Source: Candidatus Nanohalobium sp. (GTDB lineage: Archaea; Nanohalarchaeota; Nanosalinia; Nanosalinales; Nanosalinaceae). Taken from it: DNA of 25,941 bases. The notes beneath the pieces were generated by a model. That model saw nothing but the letters and a program-made list of their open reading frames with translations. It did not search any database and was not told the DNA's origin. Position numbers and translations under genes: made by a program. The stretch lies in the NCBI GenBank assembly GCA_042216335.1, contig JBDGTY010000006.1, forward strand, positions 1 to 25,941, written 5' to 3'. Shown here piece after piece: positions 1 through 9,988 of the stretch (position 1 is its first letter; each line of letters begins with the position of its first letter).

Positions 1-80
1 TTAGGCCCGTCTAGGAACTTGATTATTTTTTGTCTTTGATCGGATCGCTTGACCCATCCGAATTTTTCCCAATCAACCAT
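1..80 (-). CDS. Partial (5' end only) winged helix-turn-helix regulator, ArsR-like
   Basis: Not in ORF track. Reverse strand from ATG at 80 reads MVDWEKFGWVKRSDQRQKIIKFLDGP and runs off the window. Resembles the N-terminus of small archaeal wHTH regulators (W..hg.V..S..R..hh..L..GP); a TTTTAT TATA-like box lies about 25 nt upstream. Confidence 0.6.
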   Translation of the reverse strand, partial: MVDWEKFGWVKRSDQRQKIIKFLDGP

Positions 81-183
81 GTGTTGAGAAATTGTTCAGA
101 GGGATAAAACCAGTTATTTAGAAAGGATTTAGAAACAACTTACAAACTATTTAAAGAGGTAGTGGCAATTTGGGATTATATTT

Positions 184-1002
184 ATGTCCGAGCTTGTTGA
201 GAGGTTTGATAGGCTTAATACGCATAAAAAGGCCACTTTGGTATCGTTCTCGCTGATTATTTTGTTATTTGCAGGCTCTATCACTAATAGTATTTTGACT
301 CCGAACACTACTCCCAGTGATGCTGTCCAAATAAATTCAGTTGACTGGTCCGTTGTCCACCCTAATAGTGAGGAGGCTACAGGAGTTGTTGAAGTTGTTG
401 TAGAGGCTCCGGTAAGCAATAGTCAGGATGTAACTGTGTCAAGTTCATACGGTACGACTGAAGAAATGTTTAGTGATACTAGAGATGTAGAAAAGGTTCT
501 TCCTCCAGGCGAGGAAGCTACTCTTACTTTGGCTAAAGGTGACTGGGATAATCCTGAACAGCCTACTATTTGGTATGAGTATGATAGTCGTAGTTCTCAA
601 AGTAAAGAGGTGAGGGTGCCTCCACCTTCTTTAGGAGATGTAAGGCTTCAGGACAATCAAAGGATTACGGTTAGAACAGGTATAGATTCTTATGGAGATA
701 AAACTACTAATGGTTCGGTAATTGTCGAAAATACTGGAGGTACTGCTGTGGCAGTGACTTTAACCGAAGGTAGAGCTTCGGGTATGCAGTATGATATAAA
801 CTTGAAGCCTAAGAAAAGAAGCTATCTAATTCGGCCGCATTCACAGAGAGTAGTTAGTTTTGATGTAGAGATTAGTCGGCAAGTATCAAATTCAGATGAT
901 TATAGCAGGACCACTACTGTTAAAGTACCTATTAGTTATGGATCTATCTCTGAAGATCTTAATGTCCCAGTAGAGATAGTTAGAATAGGTCCTGAAAATT
1001 AG
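184..1002 (+). CDS. Hypothetical membrane-anchored exported protein (N-terminal TM helix, beta-rich S/T/V ectodomain)
   Basis: 272-aa ORF with a hydrophobic stretch TLVSFSLIILLFAGSI after a basic patch; TTTAAA at ~150-155 upstream. Confidence 0.75.
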   Translation: MSELVERFDRLNTHKKATLVSFSLIILLFAGSITNSILTPNTTPSDAVQINSVDWSVVHPNSEEATGVVEVVVEAPVSNSQDVTVSSSYGTTEEMFSDTRDVEKVLPPGEEATLTLAKGDWDNPEQPTIWYEYDSRSSQSKEVRVPPPSLGDVRLQDNQRITVRTGIDSYGDKTTNGSVIVENTGGTAVAVTLTEGRASGMQYDINLKPKKRSYLIRPHSQRVVSFDVEISRQVSNSDDYSRTTTVKVPISYGSISEDLNVPVEIVRIGPEN

Positions 1003-1004
1003 AA

Positions 1005-1838
1005 TTATTCTATTTTGCTTTTGATTTTCTTGTATAATTCTGGCCATTTTTCCTTTATTCCATTTAGCTCTTCCGCATATTCCGAGGCCTTCTCTTCAGT
1101 AGTGAAACCCTTTTTAACGATATCAGGAATTTCTCCGTGTTCTACTACTTTATGCAACTCTTCTATATCTAACTCTCCTGTCTGTATATGAGGTATTTGT
1201 GTCCCAAAGAAATCAGGATTTTCTGGGAATAGCTCCCAAGCTTTTTGTCCTTCTTCCTGAACTCCTTTTAGAATTGATATAGATTTTATGTGCTGGTTCA
1301 TAAGTAGTTGCCAGTTGATTTCAGTCTTCCAGAGTTTTTTGTCCCTTTTATCTTGTGATTCTCTGGCCTCTCTTATTTCGTCTAGTATCAGTTCTCTGGA
1401 CATAAGTTTTTCTCTAAATAGTCCGGAATCGAAAAATTCTCTTAGTCCTTCTTCATTTGTTTTCAGGAATAGATGCCAGTTGATATCGAAGTTATCTAAT
1501 TCTTTATCTCCTTCTTTTACTGCTTTATCTTCTTTTCTTGAGAGCTCTACTAAGTCTGCTAGCCATTTGGTATTTGATCTTACTATTGTTCTGTTCTTTG
1601 TGCCTCTACTTGTTTCTATTATGCCTAAGTCAGAAAGATATTCTCTATAAAGTTTGTCTGGTTTACTGTCGTCATATCTGAATACAGGTTGTGAGAACAC
1701 ATTTGTGTCTCCTATCTCCCATTCTTTCTTTATTTTGGGAACTCCTATCTCCGATTCTATTCCCGATATCCACATGATGAAGGCGGGAAAATCTTTATTG
1801 AATAAATCTATTACTTCTTTTAAGGTATCTTCTTCCAT
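1005..1838 (-). CDS. Hypothetical acidic cytoplasmic protein (possible wHTH-like segment LSDLGIIETSRG)
   Basis: 277-aa ORF; own TATA-like TTTAATAA at 1869-1862, ~24 nt upstream of ATG; convergent with 184..1002. Confidence 0.75.
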   Translation of the reverse strand: MEEDTLKEVIDLFNKDFPAFIMWISGIESEIGVPKIKKEWEIGDTNVFSQPVFRYDDSKPDKLYREYLSDLGIIETSRGTKNRTIVRSNTKWLADLVELSRKEDKAVKEGDKELDNFDINWHLFLKTNEEGLREFFDSGLFREKLMSRELILDEIREARESQDKRDKKLWKTEINWQLLMNQHIKSISILKGVQEEGQKAWELFPENPDFFGTQIPHIQTGELDIEELHKVVEHGEIPDIVKKGFTTEEKASEYAEELNGIKEKWPELYKKIKSKIE

Positions 1839-2001
1839 GTTTCAAGGTTCGTGCTTGTGTGTTATTAAACCAAAGTACGAGGAGTATCTTTACTGGTTGT
1901 GTGATACTCCGTAACTTGTACCGGATTAGTAGTACTCTCTGCACCATACCGCACTATCATGCATTCACAGAAGTAGTGACTGTGTGGTCACACAATCAAT
2001 T

Positions 2002-2099
2002 AAAAAAGTCGGGGATAATAATCCACCATGAGATAGAATTATTGCTTAAACTGAGAGAGAAGGTGAAGCGGCAGCTACGAACCACCGCCCACTGACCAT
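2002..2099 (-). ncRNA. Candidate small RNA (or leaderless 17-aa peptide mRNA, MVSGRWFVAAASPSLSV)
   Basis: Starts 23 nt from CTTAAG (2122-2127). 5' hairpin GTGGGCGGTGGT-TCGTA-GCTGCCGCTTCAC pairs only on the minus strand (G-U wobbles); 3' hairpin GGAT-TATT-ATCC is followed by T6 (2007-2002). Confidence 0.4.
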
Positions 2100-2117
2100 A
2101 ATTGGGTTAATGGTTCT

Positions 2118-2140
2118 AAGTCTTAAGTATCTATTGACTT
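2118..2140. promoter_or_regulatory. Palindromic TATA-like CTTAAG (probable bidirectional promoter) overlapped by inverted repeat AAGTC-N13-GACTT
   Basis: The same CTTAAG element with the same 23-nt spacing precedes the DUF433 ATG at 5506; the flanking 5-bp inverted repeat could be an operator. Confidence 0.45.
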
Positions 2141-2196
2141 CAACTAGCCGTTACGCTGCCAATCATGCTTCTCCTCAGCTCAAAAGGTGAACAATA

Positions 2197-2714
2197 TTGG
2201 CAGAACTAGTTATAGACATCGAAACGACAGGTTTAGAACCAGACGAAAACCACATAATCTGTATAGGAGTCCGAGATCTTCAAAGAAAGAGGACTTATTG
2301 CTTCGAGAATAGCGATGAGGAAGATATGTTGGAACTATTTTTCTCTTTTATTGAGGCTAGAAGGCCGGAACGGTGGATTGCGTATAATACCACTTTTGAC
2401 AGAAGGTTTATCTTCGTTAGAGCTGCGAAATACGATTTAGATTGTAAAGGTTTTTTCTCTATAACCTACGAAGATCTCATGCCTATACTCACAAATGGTG
2501 GTTACTGTTATTCTTCTAATGAGCCTAAAGGACTAGGTGAATGGGCTGAGTTCTTTTTGGGAGAAGGTAAGATGATGGATAACGGAAGTGTTCCTGAAAA
2601 ATATGAAAAAGGCAAAATTCAGGAGATTAAGGACTACTGCCGGACGATGTACAAATTACAGCTAAAATCTGGAGGCAAGTCAACTCAATAACAGAAGGAG
2701 AAGGGTTCCGATAA
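2197..2714 (+). pseudogene. DEDDy 3'-5' exonuclease (RNase H-like, YprB/RNase_H_2 type) with a 1-nt frameshift at ~2641-2643
   Basis: ExoI DIET and ExoII YNTTFD are present. ExoIII YC..D is completed only in the shifted frame (YC-R-DDVQITAKIWRQVNSITEGEGFR, TAA 2712-2714). SD AGGTGA at 2185-2190 precedes the TTG start. Confidence 0.75.
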
Positions 2715-2717
2715 TCC

Positions 2718-4196
2718 ATGGACTTCAATACTGATAGAGAGGATGTAGCAAGGGATAAACAGGTTATTGAGGAAGAAATTGAAGATCTTTTTGTAGAGAT
2801 AGATTATGAAGTACTTCCTTCAGAATTTCTAAGCAGACTTGAGCTCGAACCTATTGAAGATAGACTTGATGAAAATTTTGATCGAAGAACCAAGATCAGC
2901 AAACAGTCTTTGGGAATCGCCAGGCTTCTAGTTTACAAGGAGCTAAGAGGTATAAGCCAGTTATCAGAGACTTTGAAACTGGTTATTGATAACATGGATA
3001 TAGCAGATAACCTTGGCTTAAGCATGGCCGATATGCCAAAAAGAAGAAACCTACACCAGTTCAAGAAAGAGAGAATTGACCCTCCACTTAGGAAACTGGT
3101 TAATTACACAGCAGAACAAATCGAAGAGAAGGATACGGGAATACTTCAATATGGTCTGCCTAACGAGAAAAAACCTCTTGAAGTCAGAAGATTAGAAAAT
3201 AAGCAAGATGTAGAGAAACTTAGAGAAGGCCAAGAAAGAGACTGGTCGAATTACAATGCCGCCCGTACCAACGAAAAAATGTACTTCAATAAGCTGGCTA
3301 AGGAATTAGCGAATTTTATTAGGCAATCCGATTTGGAAACAGAGGGTAGAGGCCGTTCAGGCTACGATTTAGGGCAACAAATATATGTACTACTAAGGCA
3401 CGCATACGAAGATAAAGGAAGCAGAAGTTTTGTGTCCGAACTCAAGGAGGAAGACCCGGAGATACTGGATAATATACCTCACTTCAACTCTGTAACAAAC
3501 TTCTACGATAACTGTAAGCTAACTGATGTGCTGAAACAATTGATTACTATCTCGGCAGAGCCACTAGCGGAAATGGAGCAGGAACTTGCAGCAGATGCTT
3601 CAGGTTGGTCGACTAGAACATACGATCAGTGGTTGGAAGATCGTACAGGTGCTGCTGAAGCCAAGAGGCAGTATAAGAAGGCTCACATCATGGTCGGAGC
3701 TAATACGAATGTAATAGTATCTGCTACTGTTACAGCAGGTACAAAACATGATTCTCCTGAGTTCACAGAGCTTATGGAACGAGCCAAACCTTTTCTCCCT
3801 ATAGCTACTGTATCGGCTGATAAAGCATACAGCAGTAAAGAGAATCTTAACATTGTAGATGATAGCAACGCCTTGCCAATTATTCCATTCAAAGAGAATA
3901 CAAGCGGAAAGGCCAGAGGCGACACATTATGGAAGAAGATGTACCAGTACTTTAGAAGGCACAAATCTGATTTTAAGAAGTACTACCACCAGAGAAGCAA
4001 CGCTGAAACTACATTCTACATGATTAAAGAAAAGCTCAACAGCAGGCTTAGAACTAAGAAAGAGGTTTCGCAGAAAAATGAGCTACTAGCTAGGTTACTG
4101 GCTCATAATCTAATGGTTCTTGAACAACAGATGTTCGATTCAGGTATAAATCCTGAGTTTAATTTTTGTGCAGAAGCAACCCCTGCACAAAAATAG
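2718..4196 (+). CDS. IS4/IS5-superfamily DDE transposase (DDE_Tnp_1-like) with a long N-terminal extension
   Basis: Catalytic motifs AADASG, SADKAY and YHQRSNAETTFYMIK (exact Y-x2-R-x3-E-x6-K signature); also KKAHIMV, HDSPEF and LLAHNL. Confidence 0.92.
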   Translation: MDFNTDREDVARDKQVIEEEIEDLFVEIDYEVLPSEFLSRLELEPIEDRLDENFDRRTKISKQSLGIARLLVYKELRGISQLSETLKLVIDNMDIADNLGLSMADMPKRRNLHQFKKERIDPPLRKLVNYTAEQIEEKDTGILQYGLPNEKKPLEVRRLENKQDVEKLREGQERDWSNYNAARTNEKMYFNKLAKELANFIRQSDLETEGRGRSGYDLGQQIYVLLRHAYEDKGSRSFVSELKEEDPEILDNIPHFNSVTNFYDNCKLTDVLKQLITISAEPLAEMEQELAADASGWSTRTYDQWLEDRTGAAEAKRQYKKAHIMVGANTNVIVSATVTAGTKHDSPEFTELMERAKPFLPIATVSADKAYSSKENLNIVDDSNALPIIPFKENTSGKARGDTLWKKMYQYFRRHKSDFKKYYHQRSNAETTFYMIKEKLNSRLRTKKEVSQKNELLARLLAHNLMVLEQQMFDSGINPEFNFCAEATPAQK

Positions 4197-4217
4197 GCGG
4201 CATTATTGTGCAAGGTC
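4162..4217. repeat. Probable right transposon end: perfect 12-bp inverted repeat plus a third motif copy
   Basis: ATTTTTGTGCAG (4162-4173), 9-nt spacer, CTGCACAAAAAT (4183-4194), then ATTATTGTGCAAGGTC (4202-4217) at the composition boundary. Confidence 0.7.
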
Positions 4218-4282
4218 GGCGTTGGTCGACGAAGCCAGTCACAGGTTGAGGAGGTGAGAAGGGAAAGTCTGTAAAAAGGCCT

Positions 4283-4612
4283 CTAGTTTTCGAGAGAGTC
4301 TATGATTTCTTCTGCGAACTTCCGGAGTTCTTGCTGGTGCTTTGGAACTGTTATCTCGGTAGTCTCTCCTTTTTCACGCGTCAGTACTCTTTCGTCCCTG
4401 TTTTCTCCGTAAACTTTGTCGCTTACGTTTTCTACGTGGTAGACCTCAGCTTCCAGCGAGGTGATGTCGTATACTTCCTGCATGGAGTATTCTCCAGGTA
4501 CGTCGGCATTTTCCCATATCTCGACCCTCAGCTTCCCGAAAGGCGGGCCCTCAGTGATGTCATCGGACTCCACCATGTAGCTTACACCCTGGTAACTTCC
4601 CTGCTCGCTCAT
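4283..4612 (-). CDS. Hypothetical acidic protein
   Basis: 109-aa ORF with host-like codon usage and composition; divergent from the MBL gene. Confidence 0.7.
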   Translation of the reverse strand: MSEQGSYQGVSYMVESDDITEGPPFGKLRVEIWENADVPGEYSMQEVYDITSLEAEVYHVENVSDKVYGENRDERVLTREKGETTEITVPKHQQELRKFAEEIIDSLEN

Positions 4613-4681
4613 GATGACTTCACCAGAGTTGAAATCTTATATCTAGAACAGTTTTAGAATCTTTCCGGGAAAAGACTAGGT

Positions 4682-5461
4682 ATGAAACTGACTTTCCTGG
4701 GAACATGCGGAGGAAGATACGCCACCGGCCTCCAGACACGGCAGACCGGAGGAATAGTACTTGAAACAGAGGAGACACAGATCCACATCGACCCAGGGCC
4801 CGGAGCACTCGTCCACAGCCACAGCACCCTGAAAGAGCCGCTGGAGACCGAGACAGCCATCGTTTCTCACGGCCACCCGGACCACTACAGCGACGCAGAA
4901 GCCATCATCGAGATGATGGTTGAGGCCTCCGACAAGCCAGGAGCACTGTTCGCCCCGGAATCAGTTCTCTCCGGCTACGGCGAGATAGAGAAATCGGTCA
5001 GCGACCACCACCAGGACCTATGCATGACAGTCAAGCAACTTGAGGACGGCTCCAGCTTCGAGTTCAAGGACCTGAAGATCGAGTCCCAGGAGATGTTCCA
5101 CAGCGACCCAAAAACTCAGGGCTTCAAAATCTCAGATGGCGAGAAGACCTTCGGGTTCTGGACCGACACAGAATACAGCGAAGAACTCGTCGAATTCTAC
5201 CAGGGCTGTGACACGCTCGTCGTCTACTGCACCCGGCCGAAAGGCAGAGGAGTAAGAAGCCACACAGGCATCAGCGACGTGCCGGAGATCGCGGAGGAAA
5301 CCGGAGTAGACAACATCATCCTGACACACTTCGGCCAGGCACTTCTGAACTCGGATATGGAAGAACAGAAAGAATGGCTGAAAGAAGAGACAGAAGCCAA
5401 GGTTACTTTCGCAGAGGACGGCATGGAGTACCCAGGAAATCGAAGTCTGGGAGACTTCTGA
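4682..5461 (+). CDS. MBL-fold metallo-hydrolase (RNase Z/ElaC-like)
   Basis: MKLTFLGTCGG start, IDPGPG, SHGHPDH (HxHxDH), WTDT and ILTHFG motifs. Confidence 0.9.
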   Translation: MKLTFLGTCGGRYATGLQTRQTGGIVLETEETQIHIDPGPGALVHSHSTLKEPLETETAIVSHGHPDHYSDAEAIIEMMVEASDKPGALFAPESVLSGYGEIEKSVSDHHQDLCMTVKQLEDGSSFEFKDLKIESQEMFHSDPKTQGFKISDGEKTFGFWTDTEYSEELVEFYQGCDTLVVYCTRPKGRGVRSHTGISDVPEIAEETGVDNIILTHFGQALLNSDMEEQKEWLKEETEAKVTFAEDGMEYPGNRSLGDF

Positions 5462-5505
5462 GTTAAAACACTATCTTCTTAAGTTTCCACGAGCAATCCT
5501 TATAC

Positions 5506-5739
5506 ATGAACATAGTTGAAGATTCGGACCACAGTCAGGGCGCACCGACTGTGGAGGGCACCGGCATCAGAGTAGTGGATATCGCCGAGGCCTACGAGCA
5601 CAGCGGCTACAGCCCAGACGAGATCACCGAGCTTTACCCAGGTCTTTCTCTCAGTGATGTACATTCTGCCCTAGCTTACTACTACGAAAATATCGATGAT
5701 CTCCGCTCCGAACTCTCCGAACCAGGCGTCTCCGCATGA
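5506..5739 (+). CDS. DUF433 protein (putative antitoxin)
   Basis: GAPTVEGTGIRVVDI...GYSPDEITELYPGLSLSDVHSALAYY; ATGA overlap with the downstream PIN gene. Confidence 0.9.
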   Translation: MNIVEDSDHSQGAPTVEGTGIRVVDIAEAYEHSGYSPDEITELYPGLSLSDVHSALAYYYENIDDLRSELSEPGVSA

Positions 5740-6056
5740 AGACAGTTTACCTAGACGAGTCAGTCTGGATGCCCGTTGCTAAAGGACTTCGACAGAGAGG
5801 CTGGGAAGTCAAAACCACCCATGAAGAAGAGACCTTGGGTGATACCGATAGAGAACAGCTCCAGCTGGCAGTCGAGAAAGACTATATCTTACTGACCTTT
5901 GACGACGACTTTCTCTCGCTGGTGGAAGGCAAAGGCCTGAAACACCGTGGAATAATCTATGTCAATCAGTCCGGAAAGAAGATTGGAGAAGTAGTCAAGA
6001 AAGTAGACAAATGCCTGAACAAGAACCCAGAACTTTCAGACATCCACTACCTCTAG
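5736..6056 (+). CDS. DUF5615 PIN-like protein (putative toxin, VapC45-like)
   Basis: YLDESV...LRQRGWEV...DREQL...ILLTFDDDF...HRGII; the usual partner of DUF433. Confidence 0.88.
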   Translation: MKTVYLDESVWMPVAKGLRQRGWEVKTTHEEETLGDTDREQLQLAVEKDYILLTFDDDFLSLVEGKGLKHRGIIYVNQSGKKIGEVVKKVDKCLNKNPELSDIHYL

Positions 6057-6856
6057 GAATACCTCGAGATACCTTCCTCAGTGTCCAGGACCCAGACAGT
6101 GTTCAAACCAGTGTTCAGGCATTCAGTTTCTCCGATCGTTTCCTGACCTTCTCCCTCATGCATGTGGCCAGCGACGGAGTAATCCGGGGAAAACTCCTCG
6201 ATTAACTCCCTGACGACCACGGAGCCGTAGTGCCTGCCATGGACCGGACTGTCCGGGTTATCCACCTCATCCAGCGAAGTATCCTGTGGAACATTGTGTG
6301 ACAGGAACACGGTTTTCCCTTCCGTGAAAAGTTCGGAAAGCTCCTGCTTCTTCTCCCTGTATTCCTCTCTGATCTCCCTCATCTCCTCTTCTGAACTGGG
6401 TTTATCATCCTCATACTGCGGAATCTCCGGGCCGCTGCAAGGGCCGTAGCCGACTATTTTCCAATCCTCTATCGAAAAAGTGTCAAAGTTCAGGTTGTGG
6501 ACGTTTTCGAACTCCTCCAGCATCTCCGGATAGCCTTTTCCTTCCAGGAATGCCCAGTCCGAGTTCTCGCCCGTCCAGTCCCAGTTACCAGGAACCACGA
6601 GGACAGGAACTCCGAAATCGTTAAGTTGCTCAAGTATCTCTTTACCCTCCTCGATGGAGTTCTCCACTGCCTCCCTGGCTTCTTCCTCCCCGAAGACCTC
6701 GTACCACTCCTTTTCGGTATCCATCGCCTCGAACATCGCGGACCGCATCTCGTCCGTTCCACCGCAGATATCGCCCACAGCTAGAACCAGATCGAATCCT
6801 TCATCCGGGATTTCCGGTTTTTCTCCATGGCAGTCTCCTATTATCAATGCTTTCAT
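6053..6856 (-). CDS. Metallophosphoesterase (calcineurin-like)
   Basis: GDCHG, VGDIC, PGNWD, LSHNVP and GHMHE motifs. Confidence 0.9.
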   Translation of the reverse strand: MKALIIGDCHGEKPEIPDEGFDLVLAVGDICGGTDEMRSAMFEAMDTEKEWYEVFGEEEAREAVENSIEEGKEILEQLNDFGVPVLVVPGNWDWTGENSDWAFLEGKGYPEMLEEFENVHNLNFDTFSIEDWKIVGYGPCSGPEIPQYEDDKPSSEEEMREIREEYREKKQELSELFTEGKTVFLSHNVPQDTSLDEVDNPDSPVHGRHYGSVVVRELIEEFSPDYSVAGHMHEGEGQETIGETECLNTGLNTVWVLDTEEGISRYS

Positions 6857-6910
6857 ACTGAGTTTTTCTTTGGGAAGCTACAAAAGCTCTACTATTTATT
6901 CACCCTGAAC

Positions 6911-7146
6911 TCATCCTTCCGCTTCTGCCTCAAGTTCTTCCGGAGTAAGAAGTTCGTCCTCGCTGTAGTCAAGGCGCCCGTTCAGCTCTCTGACGGCTTC
7001 CCTGAAAAGTCTTTCATCTCGTCTATTCAGAAGCCTCCGGACAGCGCCCCGGATAAGTCGGATGTAGAAGTATAACTGCCTTCCTCTACAGCATCTTCGA
7101 TCCTTTTCTTCAGGTTCGACGGGATCTCGACACCGGTCGTCGGCAT
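6911..7146 (-). pseudogene. Ribbon-helix-helix (CopG/Arc/MetJ, ParD-like) protein split by a 1-nt frameshift at ~7055
   Basis: MPTTGVEIPSNLKKRIEDAVEEGSYTSTSD in one frame continues as IRGAVRRLL...LTPEELEAEAEG in another; joined, they give the G.Y.S.SD.IR.AVR.LL RHH motif. Confidence 0.75.
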
Positions 7147-7408: not shown

Positions 7409-9988
7409 ATGGAAGGCGATTACAACGCGGAAGAAGTCGAGGAGAAATGGCAGGAAAAATGGGTTAACGACAAGACTTACGAGTATCCAGGTGCTGAGGA
7501 TAGCGACGAAGTTTTTTCGATTGATACGCCGCCGCCGACGGTTTCTGGAAGCCTTCACATGGGCCACTTGTACGGTTTCCAGTTGATGGATTTCCAGGCC
7601 CGGTTCCAGAACATGCAGAGCGAGAAGGTGTTCTTCCCTTTCGGCTTCGACGACAACGGGATCGCCTCCGAAAGACTGACCGAGGACGAACTCGGTATAA
7701 GGCATCAGGACTTTACCAGAAGGGAGTTCCAGGAGAAGTGCCGTGAAGTCTGTAAAGAGTACGAGGAGCAGTTCACGGAGAACGTCCAGTCGCTGGGAAC
7801 GGCGATGGACTGGAGCAACACCTACAAGACGATAGAGCCACGCGTACAGCGCATCTCCCAGCTTTCCTTCATCGATTTGTACGAGAAGGATAGGGAGTAC
7901 AGGAAGAAGGCTCCTGCGATCTGGTGCCCCGAATGTGAGACAGCGATCTCACAGGTCGAGACGGAGGATGCGGAACGGGATGCACACTTCAACGACATCG
8001 AGTTCGACCTGGCATCGGGCAACGGCTCGGTTATAATCTCCACGACACGACCCGAGCTCCTTCCCGCGTGTGTGGCGATCTTCGTCCATCCGGACGACGA
8101 GATGAATGAGAACCTGGTCGGCGAGAAGGCAGAGGTCCCGCTTTTCGGACATGAAGTACCGATCATCGAGGATGAACGGGTCGACATGGAGAAGGGCTCC
8201 GGCGTCGTCATGTGCTGTACCTTCGGAGATCAGACAGACATAGAATGGTACAATGCTCATGATTTAGATCTGAAGGTTGCGATCGACGAGTCCGGAACGA
8301 TGACGGAGTTAGCCGGAAAGTACGAGGGAATGAGTACCGGAGAGGCCCGTGAAGCCATCGTCGAGGATCTTGATGATGAAGGCGATCTGCTGGATCGTGA
8401 AGCAATCACTCACACGGTTCAGGTCCACGAGAGATGCAGTGAGGACATCGAGTTCCGGGTCACCGAGCAGTGGTACGTCAAGCTGCTTGACAGGAAGGAA
8501 GAGTACCTGGAAGCCGGTAGAGACATGGAATGGTACCCTGAGAAGATGTTCTCCCGTTACAAGCACTGGATCGAGGGACTGGAGTGGGACTGGTGCATCA
8601 GCCGTCAGAGAGACTCCGGCATACCGTTCCCCGTCTGGTACTGTCAGGACTGTGGGAAAGAAGTACTGGCGGATAAAGAAGATCTGCCTGTCGACCCTAT
8701 CGAGGACGAACCACCTGTCGATGAATGTCCGGAATGTGGAAGCTCTGAGTTCGAGGCAGAGGAAGACGTATTTGACACCTGGGCCACTTCCAGTCTAACG
8801 CCACTGGTCAATGCGCGCTGGGACTGGGATGAGAAAGACGGGGAGTTCGAGATGGGAAGGCCGGAGCTCTACCCCTTCGACCTGAGGCCGGAGGGCCACG
8901 ACATCATCTCTTTCTGGCTCTTCCACACCGTAGTCAAGTGTTACGAGCACACCGGAGAGGTTCCGTTCGACGGCGTCATGAACCACGGACACATCCTCGA
9001 CGAGAACAGAGAGAAGATGTCAAAGTCGAAGGGTAACGTCGTTGCACCGGCAGAAGTACTAGAGAAATTCCCGGTTGATGCGGCACGTTACTGGGCCGCA
9101 GGCGGCAAAGTAGGCAACGACTTCCCGTTCAAGGAACAGAAGCTGGAATCCGGCGAGAAACTGATGCGGAAACTATGGAACGCATCCAAACTGGTCGACG
9201 AACTAACGGAGGAGAAGCCGTCAAGGCCGGAAGAACTTGACGAGATCGATGCCTGGCTACTGGCAGAACAGGACGAGGTCATCGACGAGGTCGCGGAGTA
9301 CATGGAGAACTACGAGTTCATGAAGGCCCGCGACAGGCTAAGAAGCTTCTTCTGGCACACCTTCTGCGACGACTACCTGGAGATCGCCAAGCAGAAGGAG
9401 ACGGACTCCGCCAGGCACACTCTACGGAACGCTCACAGAAAATTCCTGAAGCTGTTCGCTCCGTTCCTCGCCCACATCACCGAGGAGATATGGAACCAGA
9501 TGTACGCGGAGAAAAGCATCCACACCACAAGCTGGCCTGAGAAATCCGGAGTAGACGCAGACCTTGAAGCAGGCGAGAACGCCATGGAGGTCATCTCGGC
9601 ACTGAGGAAGCACAAGACCGACAACCAGATGGCGCTCAACGAGGAAATCGAAAGCATCGGTATCTACGGCAACGTCTCAGGCATGGCAGAGGCCATCAAG
9701 GAAGTCATGCACGTCCAGGAGCTGGAAGAGCTTGATGAAGAACCAGAAATGGAGAAGCAGATAGTCGAGATCTCCCTGGACTACTCGAAGGCCGGGCCGA
9801 AGTACGGCGACAAGGTAGGAGAGATCGAGGAAGCACTTGAGAACCAGGAATGGATGCTGGAGGACGGCCGACTGGAAGTCGCTGGAGAACACTTGAAGCC
9901 TGAGGAATTCGAGGTACGGGAAGAGAAGACCTACCAGGGCGAGGGAGAGATGCTCGAGCCCGGTGACGCAATGGTTATAGTCCGGTAG
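7409..9988 (+). CDS. valS: Valine--tRNA ligase (archaeal type)
   Basis: DTPPPTVSGSLHMGH (HIGH), STTRPEL, DWCISRQR, KMSKSKGN and zinc-binding CxxC pairs. Confidence 0.97.
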   Translation: MEGDYNAEEVEEKWQEKWVNDKTYEYPGAEDSDEVFSIDTPPPTVSGSLHMGHLYGFQLMDFQARFQNMQSEKVFFPFGFDDNGIASERLTEDELGIRHQDFTRREFQEKCREVCKEYEEQFTENVQSLGTAMDWSNTYKTIEPRVQRISQLSFIDLYEKDREYRKKAPAIWCPECETAISQVETEDAERDAHFNDIEFDLASGNGSVIISTTRPELLPACVAIFVHPDDEMNENLVGEKAEVPLFGHEVPIIEDERVDMEKGSGVVMCCTFGDQTDIEWYNAHDLDLKVAIDESGTMTELAGKYEGMSTGEAREAIVEDLDDEGDLLDREAITHTVQVHERCSEDIEFRVTEQWYVKLLDRKEEYLEAGRDMEWYPEKMFSRYKHWIEGLEWDWCISRQRDSGIPFPVWYCQDCGKEVLADKEDLPVDPIEDEPPVDECPECGSSEFEAEEDVFDTWATSSLTPLVNARWDWDEKDGEFEMGRPELYPFDLRPEGHDIISFWLFHTVVKCYEHTGEVPFDGVMNHGHILDENREKMSKSKGNVVAPAEVLEKFPVDAARYWAAGGKVGNDFPFKEQKLESGEKLMRKLWNASKLVDELTEEKPSRPEELDEIDAWLLAEQDEVIDEVAEYMENYEFMKARDRLRSFFWHTFCDDYLEIAKQKETDSARHTLRNAHRKFLKLFAPFLAHITEEIWNQMYAEKSIHTTSWPEKSGVDADLEAGENAMEVISALRKHKTDNQMALNEEIESIGIYGNVSGMAEAIKEVMHVQELEELDEEPEMEKQIVEISLDYSKAGPKYGDKVGEIEEALENQEWMLEDGRLEVAGEHLKPEEFEVREEKTYQGEGEMLEPGDAMVIVR

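Follow-up and report, generated by a model that had tools for sequence, protein, structure and literature searches.

The DNA analyzed here, hereafter the window, comprises the first 25,941 nucleotides (nt) of an 80,729-nt contig (C56) from a metagenome-assembled bin of Candidatus Nanohalobium sp. (1.02 Mb in 74 contigs), and its first 4217 bases very probably represent the right-hand part of a unit transposon, or transporter insertion sequence (tIS), of the IS5 family with IS903-type ends. The part in hand is at least 4217 base pairs (bp) long and holds, besides a transposase gene at its right edge, four further open reading frames (ORFs): a 3'-5' exonuclease gene directly upstream of the transposase, two larger ORFs and a 26-codon ORF start. 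Its guanine-plus-cytosine (GC) content is 39.2% compared to 51.1% for bases 4218-25,941, and the low-GC stretch reaches base 1 through the ORFs at 1005-1838 and 184-1002 and the minus-strand ORF start at 80-3, in accordance with a preliminary description of this DNA that had noted an AT-rich composition up to base 1 through three other genes. Base 1 of the window is also base 1 of C56, so there is no contig sequence upstream. Outside the bin, the stretch 1-4217 was found in a public salt-lake metagenome run only, which contains 99% of its sampled words.

The transposase gene (2718-4196, plus strand) encodes a DDE transposase of the IS5 family of 492 amino acids (aa) that matches Pfam DDE_Tnp_1 (PF01609, 8.7e-22) and consists of an N-terminal domain of about 170 aa with a weak match to DUF772, followed by the catalytic core. 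The catalytic triad D293, D368 and E430, invariant in the alignment of this transposase with its relatives, is present, as are Y423, R426 and K437. The best of six NCBIfam models for insertion sequence families was transpos_IS5_2 with 121.5 bits, which is under the cut-off of 140 and indicates a distant rather than a canonical IS5 member. The gene is intact and is present as a single copy in the genome. In a comparison set of 70 genomes from the same phylum, matches to the transposase occur in eight, mostly as fragments with stops.

The gene upstream (2197-2714, plus strand) encodes a predicted DEDDy 3'-5' exonuclease of the PolB-exo/DnaQ-like type and carries a 1-nt deletion at 2643. The plain ORF runs from TTG at 2197 to TAA at 2689-2691. 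An intact near-twin (P0087) can be aligned over residues 1-149 in frame 1 (85% identity) and over residues 150-172 in the next frame (83%), which ends with TAA at 2712-2714; frame 1 covers 2197-2643 and the next frame 2643-2714, with base 2643 common to both. The stop that the preliminary description had corrected to 2714 is confirmed by these frames. The missing base falls between the Arg and Asp codons of the third catalytic motif, Y-x3-D, and the Asp of Exo III is in the other frame, so the Exo I-III residues are not found in one frame. The gene is a member of the DEDDy family but is broken as assembled. A programmed frameshift was considered and rejected, since all 10 aligned relatives are in one frame, and a lesion or an assembly error at 2643 would account for the change.

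A word-indexed protein search returned 10 close relatives of the exonuclease, one of which is P0089, described below. Residues D16, E18, D77, Y156 and D160 are invariant in the 10 aligned relatives, making up the motifs Exo I (D-x-E), Exo II (D) and Exo III (Y-x3-D), and the window exonuclease matches Pfam RNase_H_2 (7.1e-10) and DNA_pol_B_exo2 (2.4e-8). In the PADLOC models it matches "DEDDh, CAS-associated" (6.7e-10) and no other system, and a profile search of solved structures ranked DnaQ, DEDDh and Cas2-DEDDh entries first (8h18/8h2f, 8fyc, 8fy9). A structural model of the exonuclease from a related genome, G033, with a mean predicted local distance difference test (pLDDT) score of 80.6, was matched by Foldseek to archaeal family B polymerases as well as to the DnaQ domain 8h2f, in both cases with a probability of 1.00, at template modelling (TM) scores by query of 0.64-0.74; the best structure match is the CRISPR-associated DnaQ domain of Streptococcus thermophilus, followed by exonuclease domains of archaeal family B polymerases. 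The predicted model has an RNase H-like exonuclease fold. The alignment has no N-terminal extension before the first catalytic motif, and the protein is therefore probably not secreted. The ratio of non-synonymous to synonymous substitution rates (dN/dS) between the exonuclease genes of G033 and another genome of the phylum, G042, is 0.02, with synonymous sites saturated, and the exonuclease is a lineage-specific companion of the transposase under strong purifying selection. No relative of the exonuclease was found in viral contigs, nor any long exonuclease-transposase fusion; the longer matches carry PolA-type polymerase domains.

In the window, 3 nt (TCC) separate the exonuclease stop from the transposase start codon (ATG, 2718-2720), just as the preliminary description had it, which leaves no room for a promoter between the two genes. 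In G033 the stop codon TAA of the exonuclease is followed directly by the ATG of the transposase, and P0089 is a partial ORF that joins the exonuclease C-terminus in frame to the transposase N-terminus. With a stop-to-start spacing of 0-3 nt, a single transcript is most likely, and the two genes probably form a conserved, co-expressed pair.

The right terminal inverted repeat (4203-4217, plus strand) ends in ...TTATTGTGCAAGGTC at 4217, 21 nt past the transposase stop and where the GC content rises. The candidate right end that had been proposed after the transposase holds: the motif can be aligned with the ends at the equivalent place in G033 and in L127, a locus from a euryarchaeal genome and hence another phylum, both of which read ...TTATTGTGCAAAGCC. 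Read as complement, the right end of the window is GACCTTGCACAA, and its GACCTTG is two changes from GGCTTTG. An inverted pair of the core of the end motif (TTTTTGTGCAG and its complement) lies at 4163-4193 as subterminal repeats within the last transposase codons, and G033 likewise has such a pair (L016 127-155).

A matching left end is not seen in the window. A search of the window for GACCTTGCACAAT, allowing up to 3 mismatches, returned only the motif itself and 8733-8745 (two matches, with 6.2 expected by chance), the core TTGTGCA/TGCACAA occurs within bases 1-6000 at 4166, 4184 and 4206 only, and pattern searches found no complement of the right-end motif in 1-4160. This agrees with the earlier statement that bases 1-2717 hold no matching left end; in particular, no left terminal inverted repeat stands immediately upstream of the transposase, an arrangement that the preliminary description had named as speaking against a larger element. 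The sole near match elsewhere in the bin to the 13-nt end motif is at 8217-8229 of contig C44 (1 mismatch), where by our own estimate about one is expected by chance per 1 Mb; C44, too, begins with low-GC sequence.

The nine bases that follow the right end (4218-4226) are GGCGTTGGT, and another contig of the bin, C5, when read towards the window, ends in GGCGTTGGT as well (bases 1-9 of C5, as reverse complement), with 9/9 bases identical. In two genomes of the same genus, G049 and G047, genes matching window 4283-5461 adjoin genes matching the start of C5 (C5:43-890 onward). Because the 9/9 match is found at both predicted positions, on contigs that are made neighbours by independent synteny, the two copies represent a target-site duplication, and with the partner copy at the end of C5 the element extends left beyond base 1 of the window, with its left end unassembled.

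Just upstream of the first gene of C5, bases 12-49 (L198) form a 38-nt stretch, similar copies of which (about 3 mismatches) are present in several contigs of low depth from the public run X1; it may represent a promoter region that is repeated or a target that is preferred. In one such contig ...TTTATTGTTCAAAGC, which resembles the end of an insertion sequence, is found 12 nt before a 38-nt sequence that differs from C5:12-49 at 3 positions, which suggests that a variant strain has a related end at this site; since the 38-nt stretch recurs in several contigs, we do not count this as evidence.

A complete relative is present in G033, which belongs to another genus of the same family. The element there is split over two contig ends, and both junctions are present: the left end reads GGCTTTGCACAA... 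and the right end ...TTGTGCAAAGCC, with 12-nt perfect inverted ends, and three more core copies (TGCACAA/CGCACAA) follow the left end. CTTGAAGGC is found on both sides of the element as a 9-bp duplication, the interrupted host ORF continues across the site, and the GC content is 41% inside the element vs. 54% outside. The element measures about 5 kb, of which 4,471 nt and 179 nt are in hand while about 137 transposase codons are unassembled. From the left its cargo consists of a small ORF, a flavin adenine dinucleotide-dependent oxidoreductase, an S-adenosylmethionine-dependent methyltransferase, a winged-helix protein and a weakly AbrB/MazE-like protein; these five cargo genes are followed by an intact exonuclease gene (185 aa) and the transposase. 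No empty-site allele was found: an orthologue of the interrupted gene is lacking from G032, a complete genome of the same genus, and a paralogue in G033 that is itself uninterrupted, at a distance of 4.5 kb on that contig (G033:C33, L015 8976-9392; 91% identical over 139 aa), diverges before the insertion site. Together with the 9-bp duplication shared with C5 and the synteny in G049 and G047, the complete G033 element bears out the earlier proposal of a larger cargo transposon with a single transposase.

For the wider family, an alignment of nine transposases was used to retrieve 80 metagenome and 80 genome loci (L027-L185), from DPANN archaea, Thermoplasmatota, methanogens, Hadarchaeota, Chloroflexota, Acidobacteriota and others. 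A search for 14-nt inverted ends (up to 4 mismatches) adjoining a perfect 9-bp duplication was positive for 37 of the 160 loci, compared to 1, 1 and 1 of 160 in three controls in which the upstream DNA was swapped between loci. The ends are of the GGCTTTG type (IS903-type) in 32 of the 37; the other five were set aside as chance. These 32 elements range from 2,140 to 9,537 bp (median 4,374), with 8-240 nt (median 21) between the transposase stop and the right end, and one such unit was confirmed by copy comparison, as three identical 3,574-bp copies occur in one Dehalococcoidia chromosome. Examples of such units are L110 2527-10996, L148 2568-11021 and L120 4403-11029. For the cargo, 174 ORFs were predicted in 33 elements, of which the 148 of at least 85 aa were kept; 28 of these were transposases and a further 12, mostly antisense calls, came from five elements that were not scanned, so that 108 were compared to Pfam. 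DNA methyltransferase or restriction genes are present in 13 of the 28 scanned elements and MazF or HicAB in three, and other cargo includes GmrSD, PD-(D/E)XK, HNH, AAA and transport genes. Cargo carriage is the rule in this transposase clade. In a tree of 153 rows, from which 16 of the 160 loci were omitted (short or interrupted matches), the window transposase, four full-length homologues and a 335-aa group form one clade with support 100.

By its transposase, its 9-bp duplication and ends of the GGCTTTG type, the element belongs with the IS903-type group of the IS5 family. Like members of this group, the window has a DDE_Tnp_1 transposase with Y-x2-R-x3-E-x6-K spacing; the 9-bp duplication is seen in the window and in G033, and GGCTTTG ends in G033, in L127 and in the 32 relatives. 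ISAba10, annotated as a compact IS5-like element, also has ends of this type (GGCTTTGTTGCA) and a 9-bp duplication. In contrast, over the core the window transposase is no more than 22-30% identical to IS5-family transposases from plasmids, and the element differs by its length of at least 4.2 kb vs. about 1.0 kb, its passenger genes, the extra N-terminal region of about 170 aa and the coupled exonuclease. IS903-group elements of Paracoccus measure 1,050-1,054 bp and have 9-bp repeats and one ORF (PMC3281130). The element also resembles a tIS, defined in the accessible parts of two descriptions as an insertion sequence derivative with passenger genes (PMC3129680, PMC9330008), in that one transposase and one pair of inverted ends surround unrelated genes. 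This arrangement is seen in full in G033 and in 32 of the 160 relatives, whereas in the window the right end and both duplication copies are seen and the left end is missing. Those parts of the tIS descriptions name no IS903-type example and no exonuclease (PMC3129680, PMC9330008), and the cargo form, rather than being an occasional derivative, is a clade-wide rule in archaea and bacteria. This is a known family in a new, larger form; the preliminary description, which recognised no named family for the architecture, needs correction here, given that both the IS903-type group of IS5 and the tIS category exist.

The linkage between exonuclease and transposase, as claimed in the preliminary description, holds within a close lineage (G033, G042, P0089 and L127) and fails for the wider family. 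Within the phylum the exonuclease has matches at E≤0.001 in 8 of the 70 genomes, strong ones in the bin studied here (G000), G033 and G042. Among 11 in-phylum transposase loci examined with 1.5-kb flanks, only that of G033 has the exonuclease, and the other loci also lack the transposase N-terminus. In G042 the order is a small ORF, a winged-helix gene, an AbrB/MazE-like gene and the exonuclease, which is 93% identical to that of G033; no inverted end was seen upstream. A tRNA-Ser gene (GCT; L195 8432-8515 on G042:C4) is located 145 nt upstream of the G042 module. In the 160 wider loci, searched by tblastn and profile search, the exonuclease is strong in L127 and weak in L112, at about 5.7 kb upstream. 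In L127 a divergent winged-helix gene comes first, followed by the exonuclease, an ORF of 166 aa and the transposase with the same right end. The 166-aa ORF was considered as a counterpart of the N-terminal domain of the window transposase and rejected, as the two are not similar. Divergent genes for small DNA-binding regulators are found beside the pair in G033, G042 and L127. The two larger cargo ORFs of the window have no counterpart in the G033, G042 or L127 elements; the exonuclease-transposase pair is thus constant while the other cargo is variable. The linkage is real but confined, and would be either old with many losses or a module moved between related elements.

On balance, the best explanation of the locus appears to be an IS5-family cargo transposon with an exonuclease-transposase unit in which the exonuclease acts as a helper. 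The element would have entered a nanohaloarchaeon-like chromosome between genes, producing a 9-bp target duplication, and the left junction beyond the contig start would carry the copy ACCAACGCC. One DDE transposase at the right edge would move everything between the two inverted ends. The transposase would be the second gene of a two-gene unit, the first being the stand-alone DEDDy 3'-5' exonuclease; their shared transcript would start beside the divergent regulator genes, and the recurrence of these in G033, G042 and L127 suggests that the regulators control it. The substrates of the exonuclease would be free 3' ends of DNA, for instance those of donor or target, which it might trim, or the gaps of 9 nt. 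It is not needed for the basic chemistry, because nearly all relatives are without it, and a role as a lineage-specific transposition helper, in line with the end trimming or repair that the preliminary description had suggested, is possible, if somewhat short of probable.

The closest analogy is the trimming of 3' overhangs for the CRISPR integrase, as with the Cas1-Cas2/DEDDh "trimmer-integrase" and the DnaQ domain in CRISPR adaptation of S. thermophilus (PMC10284694, PMC10470216). As in that system, the genes link an enzyme that inserts DNA with a small 3'-5' exonuclease of the DEDD type. The partner here is a DDE transposase rather than Cas1, the third motif of the window family is Y-x3-D (DEDDy) and not that of Cas2-DEDDh, and the likeness is one of fold and sequence only. 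The third motif of DEDDh enzymes contains H. No cas family was found among the 33 ORFs listed for bases 1-7000 or among the window proteins scanned against Pfam. The idea of a separate nuclease that is encoded beside a transposase and finishes end processing also recalls Tn7, in which TnsA, a restriction-enzyme-like endonuclease cutting the 5' strands, is found beside TnsB; unlike TnsA, the nuclease here is a 3'-5' exonuclease of PolB-exo/DnaQ fold. The most far-reaching version, built on the CRISPR analogy, would be a "trimmer-transposase", in which the DEDDy exonuclease, translated from the regulated transcript that also encodes the transposase, serves as a dedicated subunit and acts on transposon or target 3' ends. 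The IS903-type unit transposons concerned would form a widespread clade, so far undescribed, whose members move restriction-modification, toxin-antitoxin and other genes among DPANN archaea, further archaea and several phyla of bacteria. Taken as a whole, this version is rather unlikely.

Several results speak against the favoured explanation, some of them concerning the extent of the element. Its left end was not recovered, so a GGCTTTG-type left end has not been seen in the window element, a GACCTTGCACAA-like left end is absent elsewhere in the 74 contigs of the bin, and a public contig of the main strain from run X1, aligned to C5:1-2500, stops at base 1 of C5. The genes of bases 1-2196 could belong to an unrelated low-GC island into which a compact IS5 element, the transposase with or without the exonuclease, had been inserted, as would suit the canonical IS903-group size of about 1.05 kb with one ORF (PMC3281130); the first 900 bases or so of C5 are also low in GC (41-44%), so that composition alone does not mark the element. 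Nevertheless, there is no left-end motif upstream of either the transposase or the exonuclease, the left duplication copy is found outside the window at the end of the syntenic neighbour C5, the inverted ends and duplication in G033 enclose five further genes, and all 32 delimited relatives are at least 2.1 kb long, which together make a compact element very improbable. An artefact of assembly or binning, with a chimeric join near 4217, deserves hardly any credence: although the bin is a metagenome bin of 74 contigs and the stretch is at a contig end and differs in composition, it is present in the public run, it stops precisely at a transposon end, next to which is a 9-bp duplication with a partner on the syntenic neighbour, and the same junction logic is seen in G033.

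More weight attaches to the possibility that the exonuclease is itself cargo, with a function in defence or counter-defence, in DNA repair or in nucleotide salvage in a reduced genome, and stands beside the transposase only as the oldest or most tightly kept passenger; we regard this as a serious candidate, though not a probable one. The cargo of the family consists mostly of genes of nucleic-acid conflict, as the methyltransferase, restriction, MazF and HicAB counts given above illustrate, and 158 of the 160 wider relatives have no exonuclease in the available flanking DNA (only 118 of the 160 loci come with upstream flanks of 1.5 kb or more and downstream flanks of 60 nt or more). The two genes also decay independently. 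G042 has an intact, strongly constrained exonuclease gene followed by a remnant of about 25 codons resembling the transposase N-terminus, a stop and the contig end, while in the window the exonuclease is broken and the transposase whole, so each gene can persist without the other. The transposase of L127 belongs to a different subclade, in which its nearest neighbours are without exonuclease, as would be expected of a shuffled module; L127 has no recognisable left end within 10 kb and one copy in its genome, and this element may be decayed. In profile searches the exonuclease belongs to a broad family (2,525 cluster representatives at E≤0.001, of which 71 reach E≤1e-30), with many stand-alone members and with large proteins bearing PEGA and CarboxypepD_reg repeats, and in G043 a 29%-identical homologue without a transposase has a pair of small genes and a type I restriction system as its neighbours. 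To our knowledge, textbook DDE cut-and-paste transposition offers no obvious step for a 3'-5' exonuclease.

It is the absence from nearly all relatives, the independent decay and the breadth of the family that favour cargo, whereas the fixed position and the coupling favour a helper. Wherever the pair is complete in the close lineage (window, G033), the exonuclease gene stands immediately upstream on the same strand at 0-3 nt, P0089 fuses both, and the pair is retained while other cargo changes. The match of the exonuclease to the CRISPR-associated DEDDh model only, among those of PADLOC, and the probably non-secreted form of the protein, which has no N-terminal extension, also fit poorly with cargo.

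If the exonuclease does help transposition, an IS4/IS5-type DDE transposase would have recruited a proofreading-type exonuclease, of which we know of no earlier case; an enzyme that inserts DNA would then have been paired with a DEDD trimmer for a second time, independently, and it could be asked which factor is limiting for the processing of ends or the repair of gaps once insertion has taken place in hosts with very small genomes. In the literature, for which our coverage was thin on subscription journals and did not extend to ISfinder, we found nothing on a DEDD exonuclease coupled to an IS5-type transposase and nothing on IS903-type cargo transposons in DPANN archaea; the words "exonuclease", "passenger" and "IS903" do not occur in a 2026 survey of archaeal insertion sequences. 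Regardless of any helper role, the IS903-type clade builds units of 2-9.5 kb, often with restriction-modification and toxin-antitoxin genes, and these are a simple, trackable vehicle for the exchange of defence genes in poorly studied lineages.

The remaining cargo ORFs of the window yielded leads only. The ORF at 184-1002 (plus strand, 272 aa) has no match in Pfam, NCBIfam, PADLOC or PHROGs; structure comparison with the Atlas returned CARDB/S-layer-like proteins at TM scores of 0.40-0.50, below our bar for naming, and the product is possibly a surface protein with immunoglobulin-like beta-sandwich domains. The ORF at 1005-1838 (minus strand, 277 aa), divergent from the exonuclease gene, likewise has no family match in these four collections. 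Its Atlas matches are of the ArsR type (TM by query 0.26-0.32, with a model pLDDT of 0.40), and its N-terminal region of about 110 aa is possibly an ArsR-like winged helix. The third ORF (1-80, minus strand), inside the low-GC stretch, is the start of a translated frame of 26 codons, with ATG at 80-78, that runs off the contig start.

Relatives of the exonuclease are also found in settings other than transposons. In P0118, P0168, P0172, P0195, P0229 and P0189 a close relative by profile is the C-terminal domain of proteins of 393-1,233 aa with PEGA/CarboxypepD_reg repeats upstream, an architecture that suggests cell-surface nucleases, and in G067 a 33%-identical exonuclease gene is located beside a gene for a surface-type protein of 1,402 aa. 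In G043 (L196 492-5883 on G043:C40) the homologue (188 aa) has the S and M genes of the type I restriction system on one side and, on the other, two small ORFs, which by eye resemble an antitoxin/toxin pair, in the context of a defence island. Just to the right of the insertion site in the window (5506-6056), two overlapping genes encode a DUF433 protein (77 aa) and a DUF5615/PIN-like protein (106 aa), which together have the look of a toxin-antitoxin pair.

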